Assembly: GCA_964355275.1 (NCBI GenBank)
Contig: CAYHCB010000002.1
Span: forward strand, 6,639-70,638
Direction: 5' to 3'
DNA length: 64,000 nucleotides
DNA from: an uncultured Gammaproteobacteria bacterium
Lineage (GTDB): Bacteria > Patescibacteriota > Patescibacteriia > Patescibacteriales > UBA12465
The position numbers and the translations under genes are program-made. This document shows, in pieces, positions 1,294-53,817 of this stretch (positions within the stretch are counted from its first letter, which is position 1; every line of letters begins with the position of its first letter). The notes beneath the pieces were generated by a model. That model saw nothing but the letters and a program-made list of their open reading frames with translations, did no database searches and had not been told where the DNA came from.

Positions 1294-3792
1294 ATGTCTA
1301 ACGAGAATGAAAAGTCGGAAAAATTAGAAAATATCCGCAAACAAACAGAATTTGGGATGGTTGAAGAACAACCAATCGTCGACGAGATGAGTCGCTCTTA
1401 TTTAGAATACGCTATGAGCGTTATAGTTTCTCGAGCTTTGCCGGATGTGCGCGATGGCATGAAACCAGTTCATCGTCGTATTTTATATGCGATGTGGAGC
1501 ATCGGGCTGAGAGCCAATGCTAAATTTAGAAAATCAGCGACAGTAGTCGGTGAAGTTTTAGGTAAATATCATCCTCATGGCGATAGCGCTGTTTACGATT
1601 CAATGGTTCGTATGGCCCAAGATTTTTCTTTGCGTTATCAATTAGTAAAGGGGCAAGGAAATTTTGGTTCAATGGATGGTGACCCACCAGCGGCGATGCG
1701 TTATACTGAGGCCAAACTATCCGGAATATCTGAAGAAATGTTATTCGACATTGATAAAGATACGGTTGATTTTATACCTAATTTTGATGGCTCACATAAA
1801 GAACCGCGAGTTTTACCAGCTAAATTACCAAATTTATTACTTAACGGTACCATGGGTATTGCTGTTGGTATGTCGACTAATATTCCGCCCCATAATTTAC
1901 GAGAATTATCGGGCGCTATTATTCATTTATTAGATAATCCAGAAGCTAGCATTGAAGATTTAATGGAATTTGTAAAAGGACCAGATTTTCCAACAGGCGG
2001 TATTATTTATAATAAAAAAGATATTTTAACTGCTTACGCTACTGGTCGTGGCGGCATTGTCATGCGGGGTAAAGCAGAAATTCAGGAAAATAAAAATGGT
2101 TTTCAAATTATTATTTCCGAAATCCCTTACCAAGTTAATAAAGCTGATTTGGTTGAAAAAATTGCTGACTTAGTCAAAGATAAAAAAGTTGATGGTATTC
2201 GAGCTTTACGTGATGAGTCTGATAGAGATGGTGTTCGCGTAGTGATTGAAATGAAAAAAGAAGCTTATCCTAAAAAAATATTAAACGCTTTATATAAACA
2301 TACTTCACTGCAAACTACTTTTCACGTTAATATGTTAGCTTTAGTTGATCGTGGTATTCAGCCAAAAGTTTTAACTCTAAAAATGATTTTAGAGGAGTAT
2401 ATTAAACACCGCGAAGAAGTGGTTAAACGTCGCACTCAATTTGAACTTAACAAAGCTTTAGACAGAGCTCATATTTTAGAAGGGCTCATGATTGCGCTTA
2501 AAAATATTGATGAAGTAATTAAAACCATTAAAGCCTCTAAAGATAAAGAAGTGGCTAAAGTAAGTTTAATTAAAAAATTTAAATTATCAGATCGTCAGGC
2601 TGTTGCAATTTTAGAAATGCGTTTGCAAAATTTAGCCAATTTAGAACAACAAAGAATTGAAGATGAACTTAGTGAAAAGAGAAAATTAATAAAAGAACTC
2701 GAAACCTTACTTGCTTCATTAATTAAAATTAGATCTTTAATTAAAGAAGAGTTATTAGCGCTTACTGAAAAATTTGGCGATGAACGTCGTACCGAAATAA
2801 TTCCTCATGGTATTAAGGAATTTAATATGGAGGATTTAGTGCCCAATGAAGAAGCGATTGTCATGATGACGCGCGATGGTTACATTAAGCGTACTGAGCC
2901 AGATACTTTTAAGGTTCAAGCTAGGGGTGGCAAAGGTATTATTGGTTTAACTACTAAGGAGGAGGATTCGGTGTTATTTATGTTCACCACTTTGACCCAT
3001 AATGATATCTTATTTTTTACCACCAAAGGGCGAGTTTTCCAACTTAAAGCCTACGAAATTCCTCAAGCCTCTAGAATCGCTAAAGGTACGCCAATTGTTA
3101 ACTTTTTACAACTTACCGGCGGTGAACAGGTGACCTCTATTTTACCTTTGGATAAAATATCAAATAGTCGTTATCTTTTTTTCGCTACCGAAAAGGGTTT
3201 AGTTAAAAAAGTTGACGTTAGCGCCTTTGCCAATGTTCGTCGCAGTGGTCTTATGGCAATTAAAATTAAAGAAGATGATAAATTAATTTGGGCTAAACCA
3301 ACTTCAGGTAGTGATCATATTCATTTAATAACAGCTCAAGGACAAGCAATTCGCTTTAAAGAAACTGATGTTAGAGATATGGGCCGCAATGCTTCTGGCG
3401 TTAATGGCGTTAGATTACATAAGAACGATCGTTTAATTGGTATTGGAATTGCTAAAACTGATAAAGATAAAATTAGAAAATACCAAGTCTTAACAATTAT
3501 GGCTCGTGGTTACGGAAAACGAACAGATTTCGGTTTGTATAAAGTTCAGGGTCGCGGTGGTAGCGGTATTAAGACGGCAAAAATAACTGAGAAGACCGGC
3601 GAGCTGACTAATGCTTTTTTACTTAATTCGGAAACAATGATTGATCGCGATATCGTAATCATTTCTGATAACGGTCAAGTAATTCGTGTTCCCTTTAAAT
3701 CAATTAGTGTTTTGGGTCGCGATACCCAAGGTGTAAAAATTATGAGATTCAAGGCCGGTGATGACAGGGTGGCTAGCGTTACGTGGGCTTAA
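1294..3792 (+). CDS. gyrA: DNA gyrase subunit A
   Basis: 832 aa. [53 protein letters not shown] (QRDR region) and AAMRYTEA catalytic-Tyr motif. C-terminal beta-pinwheel repeats. Confidence 0.97.
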
Positions 3793-41541: not shown

Positions 41542-42741
41542 ATGGCTGAAATAAAACCAGAAATTGAAACTTTCGCTAAAATAAAAGTAGTCGGCGTTGG
41601 TGGCGGCGGCGGTAGTGCTATTAACCGAATGGTTAACAGTGGTATTAAGGGTGTAGAATTTGTGGCAGTTAATACTGACATTCAAGCTTTACACTATAAC
41701 AAGGCTAGCGAAAAAATTCATATCGGTAAAACCGTGACTAGGGGACTTGGCGCTGGAATGAATCCAGAGTTAGGTAAGGCGGCAGCTGAAGAATCGGAAA
41801 ATGAAATAAGAGAAGCTTTAAAGGGGTGTGATATGGTTTTTATTACTTGTGGTATGGGTGGCGGAACCGGTTCCGGAGCGTCTCCTGTGGTAGCTAAAAT
41901 TTCTCGTGAACTAGGAGCTTTAACAGTTGCGGTGGTAACCAAACCTTTTGCTTTTGAGGGTGGTCAAAGAAAAAATATTGCTGATCGAGCATTTGCCGAA
42001 TTAGCTGATAAAGTAGACACTATAATCACTATTTCTAATGATAAATTATTACAGGTGATTGATAAAAAAACTTCTTTACTTGATGCTTTTAATATTGCCG
42101 ATGATGTTCTTCGCCAGGGAGTTCAAGGTATTGCCGAAATAATTACTGTCCCTGGTATTATTAATGCCGACTTTGCCGATGTTAAAGCGGTTATGTCTAA
42201 TGCCGGTAGCGCTTTAATGGGTATTGGTCAGGCAAGTGGTGAAAATAAAGCCATTGACGCTGCTAAAGCTGCTATTAATTCTAGTTTACTAGACATGTCT
42301 ATTGATGGTGCTCGTGGCATTGTCTTTACAATCACTGGTGGCGCTGATTTATCAATGAATGAAGTTAGTGAGGCCGCTAAAGTTATCACGGCTGCCGCTG
42401 ATGAGGACGCTAAGATTATTTTTGGCGCAGTTATCGATGAATCACTTAAAGATGAAATTAAAATTACAGTGGTGGCCACTGGTTTTGATGGTAAAGGTAA
42501 CAGCCTAAAGAGTGAAACAATAAAAAATACCTATACCCCAAATTCTTTTAATGAGGAAATGGAAAAAGAAAATGCACCTAGCTCTCAATCTTGGGCCGAC
42601 AAAACTAAAACTAAATTATCCGTCTTTAAAAATACGCCAATTAAACCAATTCTTGAGAAAAAAATGGAGCAACCAAGTTCTACTAGTATTGAAGAGGACG
42701 ATTTAAGTGTTCCAGCGTTTATTAGGAAGAAGATGATGTAA
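41542..42741 (+). CDS. ftsZ: Cell division protein FtsZ
   Basis: IKVVGVGGGGGSAINRM, GLGAGMNPELG, TCGMGGGTGSGASPVVA (tubulin signature), NADFADVKAVM, C-terminal DDLSVPAFIRKK peptide. Confidence 0.97.
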   Translation: MAEIKPEIETFAKIKVVGVGGGGGSAINRMVNSGIKGVEFVAVNTDIQALHYNKASEKIHIGKTVTRGLGAGMNPELGKAAAEESENEIREALKGCDMVFITCGMGGGTGSGASPVVAKISRELGALTVAVVTKPFAFEGGQRKNIADRAFAELADKVDTIITISNDKLLQVIDKKTSLLDAFNIADDVLRQGVQGIAEIITVPGIINADFADVKAVMSNAGSALMGIGQASGENKAIDAAKAAINSSLLDMSIDGARGIVFTITGGADLSMNEVSEAAKVITAAADEDAKIIFGAVIDESLKDEIKITVVATGFDGKGNSLKSETIKNTYTPNSFNEEMEKENAPSSQSWADKTKTKLSVFKNTPIKPILEKKMEQPSSTSIEEDDLSVPAFIRKKMM

Positions 42742-42760
42742 AAAAATTTAAAAGATATAA

Positions 42761-42788
42761 AAAAATAGGGTAAAAGCCCTATTTTTTG
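42761..42788 (+). terminator. Rho-independent terminator after ftsZ
   Basis: aaaaATAGGGtaaaagCCCTATtttttg: 6-bp stem, 6-nt loop, T-tract. Confidence 0.65.
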
Positions 42789-43052
42789 TTAGTAAAAATT
42801 TATCAATTATTTATATCATTATAAGACTCATTATTTTGGCTTATTAAAAAATATTGAAATTTTTTTTAACCCTATAAAAACTAGCCAATAACGTTTATAT
42901 ATTTTTTTAAACCCATAATCATTGTTTTTTAAATTCCCCACTAATTATCCACAGGCGTAAAACAGAACCCAGCTAGATCAATATTTTATTAAAAATTGGC
43001 TATTTATTATAGCTTGTCCTAGTCTTTTAGTTTTGCTACAATAGCTATACAT

Positions 43053-43099
43053 ACAAGATGTAGTGTGATAAATAAAAAAGTACCCACTAAATATTGTTG
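43053..43099. promoter_or_regulatory. Two candidate NrdR boxes upstream of nrdR
   Basis: acaagatgtagtgtga (43053-43068; 11/16) and ccactaaatattgttg (43084-43099; 12/16) against the published palindrome acaCwAtATaTwGtgt. Centres are 31 bp (about 3 helical turns) apart, as described for tandem NrdR boxes. Confidence 0.35.
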
Positions 43100-43145
43100 T
43101 CGCTCCTCTTGACGAATTTCGACTCTTTGAGTGATAACTAGCCCT

Positions 43146-43604
43146 ATGAAATGTCCAATTTGTTATTTTGATGACACTAAAGTGGTGGATTCTCGTGTCG
43201 CGACCGATGGTTTATCTATTCGGCGCCGTAGGGAATGTTTAAAGTGTGGTTTTCGTTTTTCTACATATGAAGAAGTTGAAATTTTAGATTTAGTTATAGT
43301 CAAACGTGATGGCCGAAGAGAATCTTATAGCCGAGAGAAGTTAATTAGTGGTCTTAAAAAATCCTTAGAAAAAAGAGCGGTTACCGATGACAAATTTAAA
43401 CAGTTGATTCATGGGATTGAAAGAGATTTACAAAAACTGAGAAAAAATGAAATTACTTCTCGTCAGGTTGGACAGATGGTAATGAAACATTTGAAAAAAA
43501 CCGATCAAGTTGCCTATATTAGATACGCCTCAGTTTATGAACAGTTTAAAGATGCTAATGAATTTCGTAAAGAGTTGAATAAATTAATTAAAGAAAAAAA
43601 ATAA
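43146..43604 (+). CDS. nrdR: Transcriptional repressor NrdR
   Basis: MKCPICYFDDTKVVDSRVATDGLSIRRRRECLKCGFRFSTYE (zinc ribbon) plus ATP-cone (VIVKRDGRRESYSREKLISGLKKSLEKR). ATG 43146; the track start 43131 is GTG. Confidence 0.93.
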   Translation: MKCPICYFDDTKVVDSRVATDGLSIRRRRECLKCGFRFSTYEEVEILDLVIVKRDGRRESYSREKLISGLKKSLEKRAVTDDKFKQLIHGIERDLQKLRKNEITSRQVGQMVMKHLKKTDQVAYIRYASVYEQFKDANEFRKELNKLIKEKK

Positions 43605-43673
43605 TTTTAAAAATCAAGATTTTAAGGGGAATATTTAGTTTATATATTGTCTCTAAAAAATTAGTAACTCATT

Positions 43674-45731
43674 ATGTCAGAAATAATCACTCAAATTCGT
43701 AAGCGTTCCGGAGCTATCGTTGACTTTGATAAGGCCAAAATTATTCGGGCTATTCGTAATGCTCAAGAGGCTATTAATTTACCCAATGATAAGTTGGCCG
43801 AAGAATTAAGTGTAAAAATAATTGAAAAAATTTCTAAACATTTTCATAAAAATACTATTCCCGCAGTTGAAGAAGTTCAGGATATTGTTGAAGAAACTTT
43901 AATTGAAAGTAAGCAAATTGCTTTAGCTAAAACTTACATTATTTATCGCGACCAACATCGTCAGATTAGAGATATAAGTAAAGGCACTTCGGACGAAAAA
44001 TTAATGGAAGATTATTTAGGCAGATCCGATTGGCGATTAAAAGAGAATAGTAATATGAGTTTTTCGGTGCAGGGGTTAAATAATTATATTGCTTCGGCGG
44101 TTTCGGCTCGTTATTGGCTTAATAAATTATATCCTGAGAACATAAGAGCGGCGCATGTAAGTGGCGATTTACATATTCATGATTTAGGTTTGCTGGCTCC
44201 TTATTGCTGTGGTTGGGATCTTAAGGATTTACTAGTTAAAGGTTTTCGGGGCGTTTCTGAAAAAGTTCAAAGTAAACCACCAAAACATTTTAGAAGTGCT
44301 TTAGGACAAATTGTTAACTTTTTTTATACCATGCAAGGCGAGGCAGCTGGCGCTCAAGCTTTTTCAAATTTTGATACTTACCTAGCTCCTTACATTCGTT
44401 ATGATCATCTAACATATAAAGAGGTTAAACAGGGTCTTCAGGAGTTCATGTTTAATATCAATGTTCCTACTCGGGTTGGATTTCAAACTCCTTTTACTAA
44501 CGTCACTTTAGATATCACCCCTTCTAAATTAATTGGCGAAGAAAGTGTGGTAATAGGCGGTGAAATCATGCCAGAGCAATATAAAGATTTTCAAGCAGAA
44601 ATGGATACCTTCAATCAAGCTTTCGCTGAAGTAATGTTAGAGGGTGATTCCACTGGCCGTGTATTTGGTTTTCCAATTCCAACATATCAAATTGATAAAA
44701 AATTTGATTGGGACAGAGAGTGTCTAAAGCCAATGTGGGAAATGACCGCTAAATACGGTGTTCCTTATTTTTCTAATTTTGTTAACTCAGACATGGATAG
44801 AGACGATGCTCGTTCGATGTGTTGTCGTTTAAGACTAGATAATCGTGAACTTAGAAAGCGTGGCGGTGGCTTATTTGGCGCTAACCCACTAACTGGTTCT
44901 CTCGGCGTAGTAACAATTAATCTAGCTAGACTTGGTCATTTATCTAAAGATAGTACTGATTTTAAGAAGAGATTACTTGATTTAATGGAAATAGCTAAAG
45001 AAAGTTTAGAAATAAAACGTAAGGTGGTTGAGAAATTTACTGACGACGGTTTATATCCTTACTCTCGTTTTTACTTACATGATATAAAAGAGCGTTTTGG
45101 TAGTTATTGGCAGAATCATTTTAATACCATTGGTATAAATGGCATGAATGAGGCGGCTCTAAATTTATTAGGTCAAGATATTTCTACGACTGAAGGACAT
45201 GATTTTGCCGCTGATATCTTAGAGTTTATGCGTGACAAAATGCGTGATTTTCAAGAAGAGAGTGGTAGCTTATATAATCTAGAAGCTACTCCAGGAGAAG
45301 GCTGCACCTATCGATTTGCCAAAAAAGATAAAGAGATTTATCCAGAAATTATTTGTGCTAACGATAAAGCTTTTAAGGAAAATGGTACACCACCTTATTA
45401 CACTAATTCAAGTCACTTACCAGTTGGATTCACTAATGATATTTTTACTGCCCTTGATTTACAAGATGACTTACAAATTAAATATACCGGAGGCACAGTA
45501 TTACATGGGTTCTTGGGGGAAAGAATTAAAGATGGTGAGGCTACCAAAAAATTAGTTCATAAGATTATTGATAATTATAAATTACCATATTTTACGATTA
45601 CCCCAACTTTTTCAGTTTGTCCAAAACATGGTTATCTGGCCGGCGAACATAAATATTGCCCTAAGTGCGATGAGGATATCGGGTTTTCTCCGGAAAACGA
45701 AATTATCGCTCAGCGCTTAGCTAATACTTAA
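43674..45731 (+). CDS. nrdD: Anaerobic (class III) ribonucleoside-triphosphate reductase, catalytic body ending just after the zinc ribbon and lacking the glycyl-radical tail
   Basis: N-terminal ATP-cone (IRKRSGAIVDFDKAKIIRAIRNA), GDLHIHDL, SMCCRLRLD, NLEATPGEG, CPKHGYLAGEHKYCPKCD. It ends IGFSPENEIIAQRLANT* without an RVxGY motif. Confidence 0.9.
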   Translation: MSEIITQIRKRSGAIVDFDKAKIIRAIRNAQEAINLPNDKLAEELSVKIIEKISKHFHKNTIPAVEEVQDIVEETLIESKQIALAKTYIIYRDQHRQIRDISKGTSDEKLMEDYLGRSDWRLKENSNMSFSVQGLNNYIASAVSARYWLNKLYPENIRAAHVSGDLHIHDLGLLAPYCCGWDLKDLLVKGFRGVSEKVQSKPPKHFRSALGQIVNFFYTMQGEAAGAQAFSNFDTYLAPYIRYDHLTYKEVKQGLQEFMFNINVPTRVGFQTPFTNVTLDITPSKLIGEESVVIGGEIMPEQYKDFQAEMDTFNQAFAEVMLEGDSTGRVFGFPIPTYQIDKKFDWDRECLKPMWEMTAKYGVPYFSNFVNSDMDRDDARSMCCRLRLDNRELRKRGGGLFGANPLTGSLGVVTINLARLGHLSKDSTDFKKRLLDLMEIAKESLEIKRKVVEKFTDDGLYPYSRFYLHDIKERFGSYWQNHFNTIGINGMNEAALNLLGQDISTTEGHDFAADILEFMRDKMRDFQEESGSLYNLEATPGEGCTYRFAKKDKEIYPEIICANDKAFKENGTPPYYTNSSHLPVGFTNDIFTALDLQDDLQIKYTGGTVLHGFLGERIKDGEATKKLVHKIIDNYKLPYFTITPTFSVCPKHGYLAGEHKYCPKCDEDIGFSPENEIIAQRLANT

Positions 45732-45768
45732 TTTAATTAATAATATAAAAAATTTAAATAATAACATT

Positions 45769-45915
45769 ATGAGCCCAATCCAAACTCAAAGACAAGAATG
45801 CATTGTCTACAGTCGTGTTGTTGGCTGGTTAACTCCAGTAAGAAACTTTAATCCAGGAAAAACCTCTGAATATGGCGATCGTTTAACTTATAATGTTGAA
45901 GAAAAAAATTGTTAA
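45769..45915 (+). CDS. 48-aa stand-alone peptide carrying the NrdD glycyl-radical motif (split C-terminal domain of nrdD)
   Basis: ATG 45769 to TAA 45913-45915, hand-translated: MSPIQTQRQECIVYSRVVGWLTPVRNFNPGKTSEYGDRLTYNVEEKNC. ECIVYSRVVGWLTPVxxxNxGKxxE matches the conserved NrdD C-terminus (RVxGY glycyl radical site followed by NxGK). Its frame (+1) differs from nrdD. It is below the ORF-track size cutoff. Confidence 0.7.
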   Translation: MSPIQTQRQECIVYSRVVGWLTPVRNFNPGKTSEYGDRLTYNVEEKNC

Positions 45916-45936
45916 TTAAGTAAGGAACTTTTGGTG

Positions 45937-45954
45937 GCGAAGGCGCCCCTTCGC
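45937..45954 (+). other. GC-rich hairpin between the glycyl-radical ORF and nrdG
   Basis: GCGAAGG-cgcc-CCTTCGC: 7-bp perfect stem and 4-nt loop, followed by only a weak T-run (tatttg). Conspicuous in AT-rich DNA. Confidence 0.4.
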
Positions 45955-46000
45955 TATTTGAAGGCTAACTGTTTCGTCCCTTTTTTCCTGGTCAAAAAAT

Positions 46001-46720
46001 ATGATTATTGGTGGACTTGAAAAAATGACCTTAATAGATTATCCAGGACAATTGGCAGCGATTGTTTTTACCAAAGGTTGTAATTTTCGTTGTCATTTTT
46101 GCTATAACCCCCTGCTTGTCTGGCCCGAGAGGGAAACAGACGAAAAAAAATATGAAAAGACTTATCCTAGTATTTCTGAGGATGAGTTTTTTCTTTTTTT
46201 GAGAAGTCGTCAGGGTAAATTAGACGGTGTAGTAATTACTGGTGGAGAGCCAACGATTCACGCCGATCTATCAGTTTTTATAAAAAAAATAAGAGCCTTA
46301 GGTTATAAAATAAAATTAGATACAAATGGGACTAACCCAAAAGTTTTAACCAAACTTTTAAAAGAAAATCTTTTAGATTATGTGGCAATGGATTTAAAGG
46401 CACCATTTAATAAATATGAAAGTGTTGTTGGAGTAAAAGTGAACTGTCAGGATTTAGAAAAAAGTGTTAAAATGATAATTAATAGTCAGGTCCCTCATGA
46501 ATTTAGAACTACCGTTGTCCCTGGTTTGCTTAATTTAGAAGACTTTGTGGTAATGGGTAAAATAATTAAAGGAGCGAGTGCCTGGTATTTGCAAAAATTT
46601 AAATCAGATACCGAGTTAGTTGATCGTAAACTTGAAAAAAAATCTTCATTTTCTGATAAAGATATGGCCGAGATGGTTAAAGTGGGGATGGCTTATGTTA
46701 AAATTTGTGATTTAAGATAA
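46001..46720 (+). CDS. nrdG: Anaerobic ribonucleotide reductase activating protein (radical SAM)
   Basis: DYPGQLAAIVFTKGCNFRCHFCYN (CxxxCxxC radical-SAM cluster), GVVITGGEPT. Adjacent to nrdD. Confidence 0.9.
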   Translation: MIIGGLEKMTLIDYPGQLAAIVFTKGCNFRCHFCYNPLLVWPERETDEKKYEKTYPSISEDEFFLFLRSRQGKLDGVVITGGEPTIHADLSVFIKKIRALGYKIKLDTNGTNPKVLTKLLKENLLDYVAMDLKAPFNKYESVVGVKVNCQDLEKSVKMIINSQVPHEFRTTVVPGLLNLEDFVVMGKIIKGASAWYLQKFKSDTELVDRKLEKKSSFSDKDMAEMVKVGMAYVKICDLR

Positions 46721-46724
46721 AGAT

Positions 46725-46991
46725 ATGGAAACTGAAATAAAAAATGAAGTAGATAAAGGGAAAGAATCATCGGCTCTGCTTATAGAGCAAAATGAACTTT
46801 TACGTCATAATTTAGAAGTCAGTCAGGAGATTTTAGAAAAGACAGATATTATTAAAAATTATGTAAAATGGCAGAAAGTTTGGTCAACGGTTCGTTTACT
46901 CCTTATTTTAGTGCCTCTTTTAATTGGTTTTTTATACTTACCCCCACTTATTAAAAATTATTTAGATCAATTTTCTTCTTTATATAAATAA
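46725..46991 (+). CDS. Small protein with an N-terminal coiled coil and a C-terminal TM (88 aa)
   Basis: Stop is 4 nt before the start of the VirD4-like ATPase, suggesting possible translational coupling. TM: VWSTVRLLLILVPLLIGFLYL. Confidence 0.4.
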   Translation: METEIKNEVDKGKESSALLIEQNELLRHNLEVSQEILEKTDIIKNYVKWQKVWSTVRLLLILVPLLIGFLYLPPLIKNYLDQFSSLYK

Positions 46992-46994
46992 AAT

Positions 46995-49091
46995 ATGAGT
47001 AATAGTGAAATAGCAGTTTTTGCTCAAACAACTTTTAGAAACGAATTTAAAAAATTCGGAATTAAAACCGACGATAGACGTCGTCATATGTATTTGATTG
47101 GAAAAACTGGTATGGGCAAATCAACAGTTTTAGAAAACATGATAATAGATGATATTAGAGCGGGACGAGGAGTGGCGGTTGTTGATCCCCATGGTGATTT
47201 AGCTGAAAAAATAATGCAATATATTCCTGCTGAGCGAGTAAAAGATGTGGTTTATTTTAACCCAGCTGACATGGAATATCCAATTGCTTTTAACGTCGTG
47301 GAGCAAGTAGAACATCACTTACAACATTTAGTCGCTTCTGGATTAATTGGTGTCTTTCAAAAATTATGGGCTGATTCCTGGGGGCCTCGTTTGGAATATA
47401 TTTTACGTAATGCTATCTTAGCCATTTTAGATTTTCCAGGTTCTACTTTATTGGGGGTTGTTAGAATGCTAAGCGATAAAGCTTATCGTAAAAGAGTAGT
47501 TTCTAATATCAAAGATCCGGTTGTTAAAGCCTTTTGGGAAAAAGAGTTTGCTAGTTATGCTGATAAATTTGCTTCCGAAGCTGTTTCGCCTATTCAAAAT
47601 AAAGTGGGACAATTTTTATCTAGCGCTTTAATGAGAAATATTGTTGGCCAAGTAAAATCATCGATAGATTTGCGCGACATCATGGATAATGGAAAAATTC
47701 TTATTATGAATTTATCTAAGGGCCGTATTGGTGAAGATAATTCTGCTTTACTGGGAGCGATGATGATTACTAAGATTCAATTAGCGGCGATGAGCCGGGT
47801 AGATATTCCTGAAAAAGAACGTCGCGATTTTTATTTGTATATTGATGAATTTCAAAATTTTTCTACTGACTCATTTGCAAATATTCTATCTGAAGCTAGA
47901 AAATATCGTTTAGATTTAATTTTAGCTCATCAATATATTGAACAATTAACCGAAAAAGTTAAACCGGCTGTTTTTGGTAACGTGGGGACAATGATCTCTT
48001 TTAGAGTGGGGGCTTCTGATGCTGAAGAATTGGCCAAAGAATTCATGCCGACTTTTAATGAAGAAGATTTAGTTAACCTGCCAAAATATGAGATGTATTT
48101 AAAACTAATGATTGATGGTATTACCTCGGCGCCATTTTCTGCTCGCGGTTTACCGCCACTTACTGACGAAGAGCGCACCGGACAAGAAGAAAACACGATT
48201 AGATTTTCTCGAGAAAAATATGCTACACCTCGCAGTATTGTTGAGGAAAGAATTATGAGTTGGCACGAAAGTTCTGACGAAGGTGATAAACGAGTTGAGC
48301 GCCCCGCTACAGTTAATATTCCTTCAGCTAGCGGCAATAACGTAAATAGTAAAATTATTCCTAGTACTCGCAATTATGAACCACAGGGCGGTGAGGGCTA
48401 TCGGACTAATTGTGCTTTATGTAATAATGTTACCTTTACCCCATTTGAGCCAGATGGAGTACGACCAGTTTTTTGTAAACAATGTTTAAGTAAGAAAAAA
48501 GAAGAGCGTAAAATAGAAATGGAAAAAAATCAACCAGCCAAACAGGCGACGACGGTAAATCCTGTCGCTAATCTGGCAGTTTCCCCAAAGATGGTGGCTA
48601 CGCCAACAATTCCGGCTACCACCACTACCACTACTACTACGGTAACGGCGACAACTTTAGTTGAAGCGCCTGTTAAAAAAACAAATAATATTCCAGCTAC
48701 CCCTAAGACTAGTTATAGCAATGAAGCCGGACAAAATAGTAAAAGAATAATAAATAATTCTCAGATACCCCCTCGTCAATCGACTAATCAGGCGGCTAAT
48801 GTAAATATTTTACGACCCCTTAAACCTCAGGCCCCTATTAAACCGCAACCTTTTAGACCATCAAGTATGGCTAGTTTTGAGGTTCCAGAAAAACCGGTGG
48901 CGACGATGTCTTTAGGAGACTTAAGTTCAGCTCAACCATTAAATTTTAAAGGACGACCGGATATGGTTAAAACTGATAAAAATATCACCGAAGTTAATGA
49001 CAAAGATGATGGAGAATTATTAGCTAATTGGCCTGCTGGCGATAATTGGCAAGAAGGAGAAGAGATTAACCTAAATAAACAAGACAAATAA
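46995..49091 (+). CDS. VirD4/TraG/TraD-like (type IV coupling-protein-like) P-loop ATPase with a C-terminal 4-Cys zinc ribbon and a low-complexity Thr/Pro tail
   Basis: Walker A GKTGMGKST, VVDPHGDL, Walker B FYLYIDEFQNF, ARKYRLDLILAHQYIEQL (TraG-D_C-like). CALCNNVTFTPFEPDGVRPVFCKQC at nt 48411-48485. TTTTTTTVTATT run. Confidence 0.7.
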   Translation: MSNSEIAVFAQTTFRNEFKKFGIKTDDRRRHMYLIGKTGMGKSTVLENMIIDDIRAGRGVAVVDPHGDLAEKIMQYIPAERVKDVVYFNPADMEYPIAFNVVEQVEHHLQHLVASGLIGVFQKLWADSWGPRLEYILRNAILAILDFPGSTLLGVVRMLSDKAYRKRVVSNIKDPVVKAFWEKEFASYADKFASEAVSPIQNKVGQFLSSALMRNIVGQVKSSIDLRDIMDNGKILIMNLSKGRIGEDNSALLGAMMITKIQLAAMSRVDIPEKERRDFYLYIDEFQNFSTDSFANILSEARKYRLDLILAHQYIEQLTEKVKPAVFGNVGTMISFRVGASDAEELAKEFMPTFNEEDLVNLPKYEMYLKLMIDGITSAPFSARGLPPLTDEERTGQEENTIRFSREKYATPRSIVEERIMSWHESSDEGDKRVERPATVNIPSASGNNVNSKIIPSTRNYEPQGGEGYRTNCALCNNVTFTPFEPDGVRPVFCKQCLSKKKEERKIEMEKNQPAKQATTVNPVANLAVSPKMVATPTIPATTTTTTTTVTATTLVEAPVKKTNNIPATPKTSYSNEAGQNSKRIINNSQIPPRQSTNQAANVNILRPLKPQAPIKPQPFRPSSMASFEVPEKPVATMSLGDLSSAQPLNFKGRPDMVKTDKNITEVNDKDDGELLANWPAGDNWQEGEEINLNKQDK

Positions 49092-51859: not shown

Positions 51860-51932
51860 AGCCGAGAATGGGAGTCGAACCCACGACCTACACGTTACGA
51901 GTGTGTTGCTCTACCAGCTGAGCTATCTCGGC
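51860..51932 (-). tRNA. tRNA-Thr (anticodon CGU)
   Basis: Reverse complement GCCGAGATAGCTCAGCTGGTAGAGCAACACACTCGTAACGTGTAGGTCGTGGGTTCGACTCCCATTCTCGGCT folds as a cloverleaf: 7-bp acceptor, GCTC/GAGC D-stem, CT-CGT-AA anticodon loop, GTTCGACTC T-loop. No encoded CCA. Confidence 0.9.
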
Positions 51933-53746: not shown

Positions 53747-53817
53747 TCGGGGATCGTCTAATGGTAGGACAGCGGCCTTTGAAGCCGTCGATCTAGGTTC
53801 GAATCCTGGTCCCCGAG
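53747..53817 (+). tRNA. tRNA-Gln (anticodon UUG); its 3' part is the integration target of the downstream element
   Basis: TCGGGGATCGTCTAATGGTAGGACAGCGGCCTTTGAAGCCGTCGATCTAGGTTCGAATCCTGGTCCCCGAG: 7-bp acceptor TCGGGGA/TCCCCGA, CT-TTG-AA anticodon loop, GGTTCGAATCC T-arm. Confidence 0.9.

Follow-up and report, generated by a model that had tools for sequence, protein, structure and literature searches.

A class III ribonucleotide reductase with its glycyl-radical loop encoded as a separate 48-residue microprotein in Patescibacteria

Class III ribonucleotide reductases (RNRs) such as those of phage T4, Escherichia coli, Thermotoga maritima and Prevotella copri, are single-chain enzymes. To our knowledge, every described glycyl-radical enzyme has its radical glycine on the catalytic chain, the only exception in use being the optional GrcA protein of pyruvate formate-lyase (PFL). 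The nrdD locus considered here lies in a 64-kb stretch of DNA from an uncultured bacterium (contig CAYHCB010000002.1), called the window below; positions are those of the window, L numbers denote related loci and P numbers cluster representatives. The enzyme it encodes shares with single-chain NrdD the family, the fold, the ATP-cone, the finger-loop cysteines and the zinc ribbon, as well as the radical motif RVxG[YFW] and an adjacent radical-SAM activase gene. It differs in one defining respect: the radical hairpin is on a separate polypeptide of 48 amino acids (aa). The split is confirmed as real and is not an assembly artefact. Very probably, the locus specifies a naturally fissioned class III RNR made of two obligate subunits, in which the radical loop acts in trans and is activated by NrdG.

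Small stand-alone proteins with a glycyl-radical loop are likewise represented by the PFL cofactors GrcA/YfiD and Y06I of phage T4. In the account given by Andorfer et al. 2021 (PMC8683613), these proteins are activated by the cognate activase and dock on a large body that has no working radical domain; the detachable loop limits what PFL loses to oxygen cleavage, and whether spare-part proteins exist for glycyl-radical enzymes beyond PFL is raised there as a question. GrcA has about 127 aa, is a homolog of the PFL C-terminus (PF01228) and serves as an optional repair part for full-length PFL, whereas the microprotein described here has 48 aa, is a homolog of the NrdD C-terminus (PF13597) and appears to be the sole source of the radical loop. 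Neither the window nor the set of the 120 closest homologs of the catalytic body includes a full-length NrdD. The small open reading frame (ORF) matches only PF13597 (NRDD) and the NrdD models of NCBIfam; neither PF01228 nor a GrcA model matches it. An earlier sequence-only reading of this locus had named GrcA/YfiD as a precedent for docking in trans. The precedent remains apt for a possible mode of action; it does not extend to family membership, and a full-length NrdD to be repaired was seen at no locus.

Fission of an RNR chain has precedents of its own. The class II enzyme of Pseudomonas aeruginosa is also encoded by two adjacent operon genes, NrdJa and NrdJb, both of them needed; it belongs to another class and is split at another point, and the 229-aa NrdJb does not separate a radical-bearing residue from the body. 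In the NrdA of Aeromonas phage Aeh1, split by a mobE insertion, fission left the first piece with extra residues at its C-terminus and the second with extra residues at its N-terminus, through which the pieces assemble (Friedrich 2007 and Crona 2011, as summarised in bioRxiv 10.1101/2022.08.31.505936). The locus described here is like Aeh1 NrdA in having contiguous profile coordinates together with an extra tail and head; it is unlike it in occurring in cellular lineages, in its class and split point, and in that the second piece is a microprotein carrying the radical residue. No homing-endonuclease gene or remnant was found in the gaps between the two parts (37 nt in the window, 18-182 nt in relatives), and no ORF lies inside them. 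According to Dwivedi et al. 2013 (PMC3653736), phage genomes have nrdD interrupted more often than any other RNR gene. The split phage genes, such as the T4 nrdD with its group I intron or the fragments in Aeromonas phage phiAS4, represent introns or unexplained recent fragmentations at other positions, whereas here the separation of the radical loop is conserved and the loop has its own start codon. In the full-text literature searched, which does not extend to subscription-only papers, we found no account of a class III RNR split in this way.

The catalytic body is encoded on the forward strand, as are all genes of this locus, by nrdD at 43674-45731 (ATG at 43674, TAA at 45729-45731). It has 685 aa and matches the NRDD profile PF13597 over positions 1-529 of 562 (E = 2e-182, 608 bits), NCBIfam NF006126 over positions 2-650 of 684 (1026 bits; cut-off 548) and TIGR02487 (521 bits; cut-off 326). 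The ATP-cone (PF03477, E = 2.4e-18) takes up aa 7-96 (43692-43961). Two further motifs were read from the sequence: the finger loop M382-C383-C384-R385-L386, which is the thiyl-radical cysteine region (44817-44831), and the zinc-ribbon ligands C649-P-K-H652 ... C662-P-K-C665 (45618-45668). Alignments with fused and split homologs show C383, C384, R385 and L386 to be invariant; so are C649, C662 and C665, which align with the CxxC/H...CxxC of solved NrdDs. All the NrdD sequence features that were looked for are present on the body except a radical loop RVxG[YFW] on its own chain. The profile match stops at aa 667-668, and the chain ends in ...AQRLANT, 20 aa past C665, without a glycine motif. 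This C-terminal extension (aa 666-685, DEDIGFSPENEIIAQRLANT, 45669-45728) lies outside the NrdD profile. Among the corresponding tails of 75 loci a semi-conserved pattern recurs: DEEIG[YF], about 11 variable residues and R-x-AN. The idea that the tail might be a degenerate duplicate or relic of a radical domain arose when MAFFT paired its IGY with the VGY of the radical loop; it was rejected, because a hidden Markov model (HMM) of the microprotein scores about 0 bits on 120 tails.

An AT-rich intergenic gap of 37 nt (45732-45768) separates the body stop from the ATG of the glycyl-radical microprotein gene (45769-45915; ATG at 45769, TAA at 45913-45915), which is in the +1 frame relative to the body. 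Its predicted product is MSPIQTQRQECIVYSRVVGWLTPVRNFNPGKTSEYGDRLTYNVEEKNC, with Gly19 of the motif RVVGW encoded at 45823-45825, the only glycyl-radical motif in the whole 64-kb window. The product matches PF13597 over the remaining positions, 530-562 of 562 (E = 2.4e-6; 26.9 bits, above the cut-off of 26.2), and NF006126 over 649-683. Since the profile coordinates abut, at 529/530 in Pfam and likewise in NCBIfam, the body and the small ORF complement each other exactly to make up one NrdD; about 17 residues at the end of the body and 8 at the front of the small ORF fall outside the profile. The break is placed where a short linker joins the zinc ribbon to the glycyl-radical hairpin. As the gene reads, the final 33 profile positions, Gly19 included, belong to a separate protein of 48 aa that starts at a conserved ATG of its own. 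Fused homologs have neither the 20 aa that the body carries beyond C665 nor the 9-aa head of the microprotein. Next comes nrdG (46001-46720), encoding a radical-SAM activase of 239 aa that matches PF04055 (Radical_SAM) and TIGR02495 (NrdG2; E = 3e-63, 212.7 bits, cut-off 131). The layout first described, with its coordinates, the motifs and C-terminus of the body, the identity of the small ORF as the conserved end of NrdD with the radical glycine, and the activase gene after it, was thus borne out in full.

The arrangement is shared by many relatives. A protein search with the 48-aa sequence brought up 71 relatives from Patescibacteria, Parcubacteria and Falkowbacteria assemblies, all of them stand-alone proteins of 40-75 aa, with identity down to 63%. 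The best 120 matches of the body (77-100% identity; 77-92% across species) all have 675-703 aa, and the glycine motif is on none of them (0/120). A scan of species-representative genomes, one per species, found 154 stretches encoding the small ORF, which puts the number of species with the split above 150. Many of the records with a Patescibacteria-type locus in this collection are titled 'uncultured Gammaproteobacteria bacterium' (CAY.../CAZ...; seen on L010-L012, L015, L018-L021 and many others), one Bacillota and one Planctomycetota; these records are probably mislabelled. Both parts could be located in 79 loci, and in all 79 the body ends in a stop. The gap between them ranges from 18 to 182 nt, the frame of the small ORF relative to the body stop is 0, +1 or +2 in 39, 20 and 20 loci, and most gaps hold several stops in every frame; in L001 the sequence TAA TAA stands in frame between the two parts. 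Dropping near-duplicate and error-rich loci left 75 distinct ones; L006, shattered into many ORFs, was read as an error-rich assembly and left out. The small ORF is directly followed by nrdG in 72 of these 75 scanned loci and in every locus whose gene context was read. Compared in this way, related genomes have nrdD split at the same place, not contiguous, and they keep the small ORF as an ORF in its own right. The fission is an old one and has become fixed across a large group of Patescibacteria, the Falkowbacteria and their relatives.

Sequence constraint on the small protein is severe. Its relatives have 16 invariant columns, among them R16-V-V-G19-W20, which are residues of the NrdD radical domain, and the start MSP(I/V)(Q/K)T is conserved. 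Over a 34-codon core in 77 loci, the mean proportion of synonymous differences (pS) is 0.78, that is, saturated, the proportion of nonsynonymous ones (pN) is 0.075, and the median ratio of nonsynonymous to synonymous rates (dN/dS) is 0.027, a pattern indicating that the microprotein gene is under strong purifying selection. In databases its relatives go by 'anaerobic ribonucleoside-triphosphate reductase' or 'hypothetical protein'.

Cysteines near the ends of the two chains form a further pattern. Stand-alone microproteins have a Cys within the last 12 residues in 31 of 71 and in 32 of 120 cases, as against 1 of 57 fused NrdD tails; examples are EEKNC (window, 45898-45912), NSCC (L053, L065, L071, L082) and RSCGC (L089, 5154-5168). 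All 15 loci in which a Cys pair ends the body tail also have a microprotein Cys past residue 20. Such a C-terminal Cys could act as an inter-subunit tether or a redox tail. As for Cys11 of the microprotein, fused homologs have a Cys just before the xVYSR motif in 19 of 50 cases when the first zinc pair is CxxH and in 1 of 11 when it is CxxC. That Cys11 might be a fourth zinc ligand is only an idea, to which these counts give a weak and phylogenetically confounded hint.

The same fission is found beyond this lineage. The comparison set consisted of the 150 best cluster representatives related to the body (P0192-P0341). The closest clearly fused NrdDs among them are 55-58% identical to the body, and their junctions span 6-8 residues from the last Cys of CPxC to the aromatic residue of xVYSR. 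Roughly half of the set stops shortly past the zinc site without a radical loop, some of them possibly cut by a contig end. At L087, whose body tail reads CPYPHTEEDLERFG..., a 60-aa ORF lies 90 nt downstream with AAGGAGG before it. A search with this ORF gave 512 stand-alone homologs, the best 120 of which all have 48-86 aa; they include proteins of the cultivated Thermodesulfobacterium sp. TA1, Thermosulfurimonas marina and Thermosulfurimonas sp. F29, and others from assemblies of Thermodesulfobacterium geofontis, Thermodesulfatator, Caldimicrobium and Hydrothermota and from a contig labelled Pacearchaeota. The finished chromosome of T. marina encodes an intein-bearing body of 1600 aa that overlaps a 56-aa ORF by 14 nt; GAGGAGG stands 5 nt ahead of the small-ORF ATG, and nrdG starts right after the small-ORF stop. 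By its layout, this is a classic coupled gene pair. The split point in the Thermodesulfobacteria, at about profile positions 529-533, is that of the window. Complete chromosomes (CP066698, CP042909) are among the genomes that show the split. Split and fused forms are intermingled in a neighbour-joining tree of 142 representatives, but the tree is rough, and contig ends make the split calls uncertain. It is compatible both with one ancient fission and with several fissions at the only permissive linker.

NrdD bodies related to that of the window are very rich in inteins: they reach 800-1900 aa with two to four matched stretches (P0192-P0341; L087, L088, L089). Insertion points recur at about residues 108, 172, 270 and 383 of the query; residue 383 is at the finger-loop cysteines.

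Several explanations would keep NrdD as one gene or one chain. The sequence-only reading had pointed out that the +1 frame is open from 45721, its previous stop being the TAG at 45718-45720, so that one indel or a +1 shift within 45721-45728 would fuse the two ORFs through a hypothetical linker LILNLINNIKNLNNNI. Open frame and linker are as it described them; the caveat is answered by relatives, with their three frames, their gaps of 18-182 nt and the double TAA of L001. That a single-base error near this site hides a contiguous nrdD has next to no probability: the same split occurs in about 80 independently assembled species-level genomes with differing gap lengths and frames, and in the two complete chromosomes named above, and a fused version would contain an insertion of about 40 residues that is found in no fused homolog. 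Programmed recoding, by +1 frameshifting, read-through of the stop or ribosomal bypass, might still join the ORFs in translation; the window has an open frame through the junction, a few relatives such as L010 and L017 have a single in-frame stop between the ORFs, and phage T4 gene 60 is a known case in which ribosomes bypass a coding gap (mentioned in bioRxiv 10.1101/2022.08.31.505936). It is nonetheless highly improbable, for the frame relation is not conserved, most gaps have several stops per frame and gap length varies tenfold. Moreover, the small-ORF ATG and MSPIQT are conserved, most gaps contain a promoter-like element, T. marina has a Shine-Dalgarno site before an ATG that overlaps the body end, and the window gap shows no evident slippery sequence or take-off/landing pair. 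Restoration of one chain by protein or RNA splicing, through a degenerate intein, a split intein or an intron, is suggested by the intein-rich NrdDs just described and by the group I intron in T4 nrdD (PMC3653736). Its likelihood is negligible: gaps go down to 18 nt, body tails of 0-31 aa and microprotein heads of 8-10 aa are far too short for split-intein halves, no intein model of Pfam matches the body tail or the small ORF, and no Rfam intron matches. Inteins and introns are excluded on these two grounds, size and lack of a matching model.

Other explanations accept two proteins and deny them a joint function. In the reduced genomes of Patescibacteria, nrdD might be a decaying pseudogene and the small ORF a leftover, and the heavily fragmented L006 looks like a case in point; yet its fragmentation runs through the whole locus and so indicates an error-rich assembly, not site-specific decay. 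With dN/dS of about 0.03 on the small ORF, bodies intact in 120 of 120 homologs and nrdG intact as well, decay can be discounted almost entirely. Conserved stops, varied frames and gaps, the conserved start and dN/dS together place the pattern beyond what a sequencing indel, frameshift, read-through, bypass or decay can explain. A pure spare part is a different matter: the small protein would, like GrcA, repair a full-length NrdD whose gene lies elsewhere, and the truncated body would be inactive or otherwise employed. Such a role is established for PFL and suggested as a possibility for other glycyl-radical enzymes by Andorfer et al. 2021 (PMC8683613), and some radical-domain ORFs do lie away from any body, on contigs resembling mobile elements (L114, L088). 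Here it is very unlikely. No fused NrdD occurs among the 120 closest homologs of the body, the window has one radical motif only, the body retains every catalytic motif at 77-92% identity across species, and body, microprotein gene and nrdG stand in that order at every locus whose context was read.

The two-subunit enzyme would work much as single-chain NrdD does. NrdG would abstract the hydrogen from Gly19, whether the microprotein is still free or sits on the body already; the hairpin would then insert into the barrel and bring the glycyl radical beside Cys383/384, as in the single-chain enzyme. The body tail and the microprotein head MSPIQTQRQ would help to hold the pieces together, much as the extensions of Aeh1 NrdA do, and the invariant Cys11 may also contribute to assembly. 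Oxygen cleaves glycyl-radical proteins at the glycine; after oxygen damage, therefore, only the 48-aa piece would need replacing. Activases of the NrdG family act on GrcA and on short peptides. That this NrdG activates this microprotein we infer only from the neighbouring gene.

Structure prediction fits such an assembly. AlphaFold2 (AF2) modelled body residues 1-667 joined to small-ORF residues 8-48 with a mean confidence (predicted local distance difference test, pLDDT) of 91.3. The microprotein part forms a beta-hairpin (672-677, 680-683) and a helix at a pLDDT of about 90, with Gly19 in the turn between the two strands, and the best structural matches of the model are solved class III RNRs. 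The model shows the predicted microprotein to be compatible with the canonical position of the radical loop; docking in trans is a separate matter.

Certain points weigh against the two-subunit enzyme. The high-confidence model is that of a fused construct, built on an alignment of fused homologs, and mainly restates homology. When the complete body and small ORF were concatenated, AF2 modelled the body and left residues 670-733 at a pLDDT below 50; this run is uninformative on docking, because MAFFT had placed the VGY of the fused homologs on the IGF of the body tail. Body and microprotein are known here from genes and predicted structure alone. The advantage of a spare cartridge is a rationale, drawn from analogy. 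Finally, one +1 event anywhere in 45721-45728 would suffice to join the ORFs, and this genome may yield a minor fused product. The main uncertainty is functional, and lies in docking, activation and exchange, all of which we infer.

What surrounds the small ORF suggests how it may be expressed. In the window's own 37-nt gap neither a promoter-like nor a Shine-Dalgarno-like site was called, nor a terminator. The lack of a Shine-Dalgarno site before the small ORF is normal for this genome, since such sites are nearly absent upstream of genes in the window (1 of 38); TAA, the stop of both parts, ends 35 of the 38 long ORFs. A promoter-like element, TTGTAA-N17-TATAAT, is present in 46 of the 75 gaps (among L016-L085; for example L018, L024, L026, L034 and L036), enriched over the rest of the same loci between 250-fold (loose pattern) and 2000-fold (strict pattern). 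Loci that have it often have a hairpin-forming leader after the element, whose sequence differs while the pairing is kept (L024 against L026, L034 against L036), and nrdG begins 9-15 nt past the small ORF. Across most of the lineage, then, nrdG and the microprotein gene before it have the appearance of a unit served by a promoter of its own.

In the window, as in L007-L011, which are closest to it, the gap is short (29-41 nt) and TTGTAA-N17-TATAAT is missing from it. Where nrdG was located in this group (window and L007-L010), the spacer between small ORF and nrdG is 81-90 nt long and contains a hairpin. In the window this spacer measures 85 nt (45916-46000) and holds an 11-bp hairpin at about 45933-45958 with the core GCGAAGG-cgcc-CCTTCGC, GC-rich in an AT-rich genome; its folding energy is -24.8 kcal/mol, at a folding z-score of only -1.3. 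The spacer hairpin may be a weak terminator or attenuator that lowers nrdG expression. Rfam gave no match in the spacer and gap region of the window or in nine related loci. Elsewhere, a sublineage (L048, L050, L058, L059, L072, L073, L074, L085, L086) has a conserved element of 60-70 nt upstream of nrdG, GCGGGGA..GCCGTT..ATCCCGGC, in the spacer between small ORF and nrdG (about 3645-3715). Its predicted stem has 11 pairs, with compensatory changes at 3, and Rfam has no match for it. The element is a candidate structured leader.

A more far-reaching proposal, which we put forward tentatively and consider rather unlikely to be right in all its parts together, is that the radical resides on an exchangeable cartridge of 48 aa. 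NrdG would load the cartridge while it is free; it would then be plugged into the body and swapped after oxygen cleavage, so that the large and often intein-laden body is never sacrificed. The pair of microprotein gene and nrdG would be a separately transcribed radical-loading module, as the promoter-like element in most gaps may suggest, and viruses or mobile elements of the hosts might carry extra cartridges (L114, IMG/VR contigs). If this were true, class III would have its own equivalent of the class I RNR subunit that stores the radical on a separate chain, and a spare-part system would for the first time be known from an enzyme other than PFL.

Radical loops away from their usual place have been seen in a few settings. 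An NrdD-type radical-loop ORF lies away from any body at 1711-1926 of L114, a 5-kb contig with a primase/helicase-like gene and many small ORFs, which looks like a mobile element. In L088 a stand-alone radical-loop ORF (1-98) is found 2.4 kb upstream of an intein-bearing body. Both may be mobile 'spare' loops. In addition, 24 IMG/VR contigs catalogued as viral, a label that is the catalogue's alone, encode relatives of the small ORF (L090-L113); in the 21 whose radical motif was located, it is in a short stand-alone ORF with at most 43 codons open upstream.

If the two-subunit enzyme is real, an RNR whose radical loop always comes from a separate microprotein would mean a new subunit architecture in an essential enzyme, and it would come as a surprise to specialists that entire lineages have the RNR radical on so small a protein. 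Whether radical domains that act in trans or as spare parts exist beyond PFL would become directly testable, and the system would be a natural one for asking how a radical domain leaves the barrel to meet its activase. Experiments are feasible because cultivated Thermodesulfobacterium and Thermosulfurimonas species have the same architecture. There is a consequence for annotation as well: thousands of metagenome-derived NrdD entries look truncated, with partners of 45-60 aa that are named hypothetical or mislabelled as full reductases.

The genes around the pair belong to a conserved block. Directly upstream of nrdD on the same strand is nrdR (43131-43604), the transcriptional repressor of nrd genes, with Pfam matches to Zn_ribbon_NrdR (E = 2e-20) and the ATP-cone (E = 4e-19). 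The window, L001 and L002 share the order ftsZ, nrdR, nrdD body, microprotein gene, nrdG, an 88-aa ORF and a 698-aa ATPase, a block that spans 41542-49091 in the window; L004 keeps the order from nrdR onward. At gathering threshold, the only Rfam matches in the window are two tRNA genes, at 51860-51932 on the reverse strand and 53747-53817 on the forward strand. The 698-aa ATPase (46995-49091) is TraG/TrwB-like and in the window has a Thr-rich low-complexity stretch and a long tail rich in Pro, Gln and Asn.

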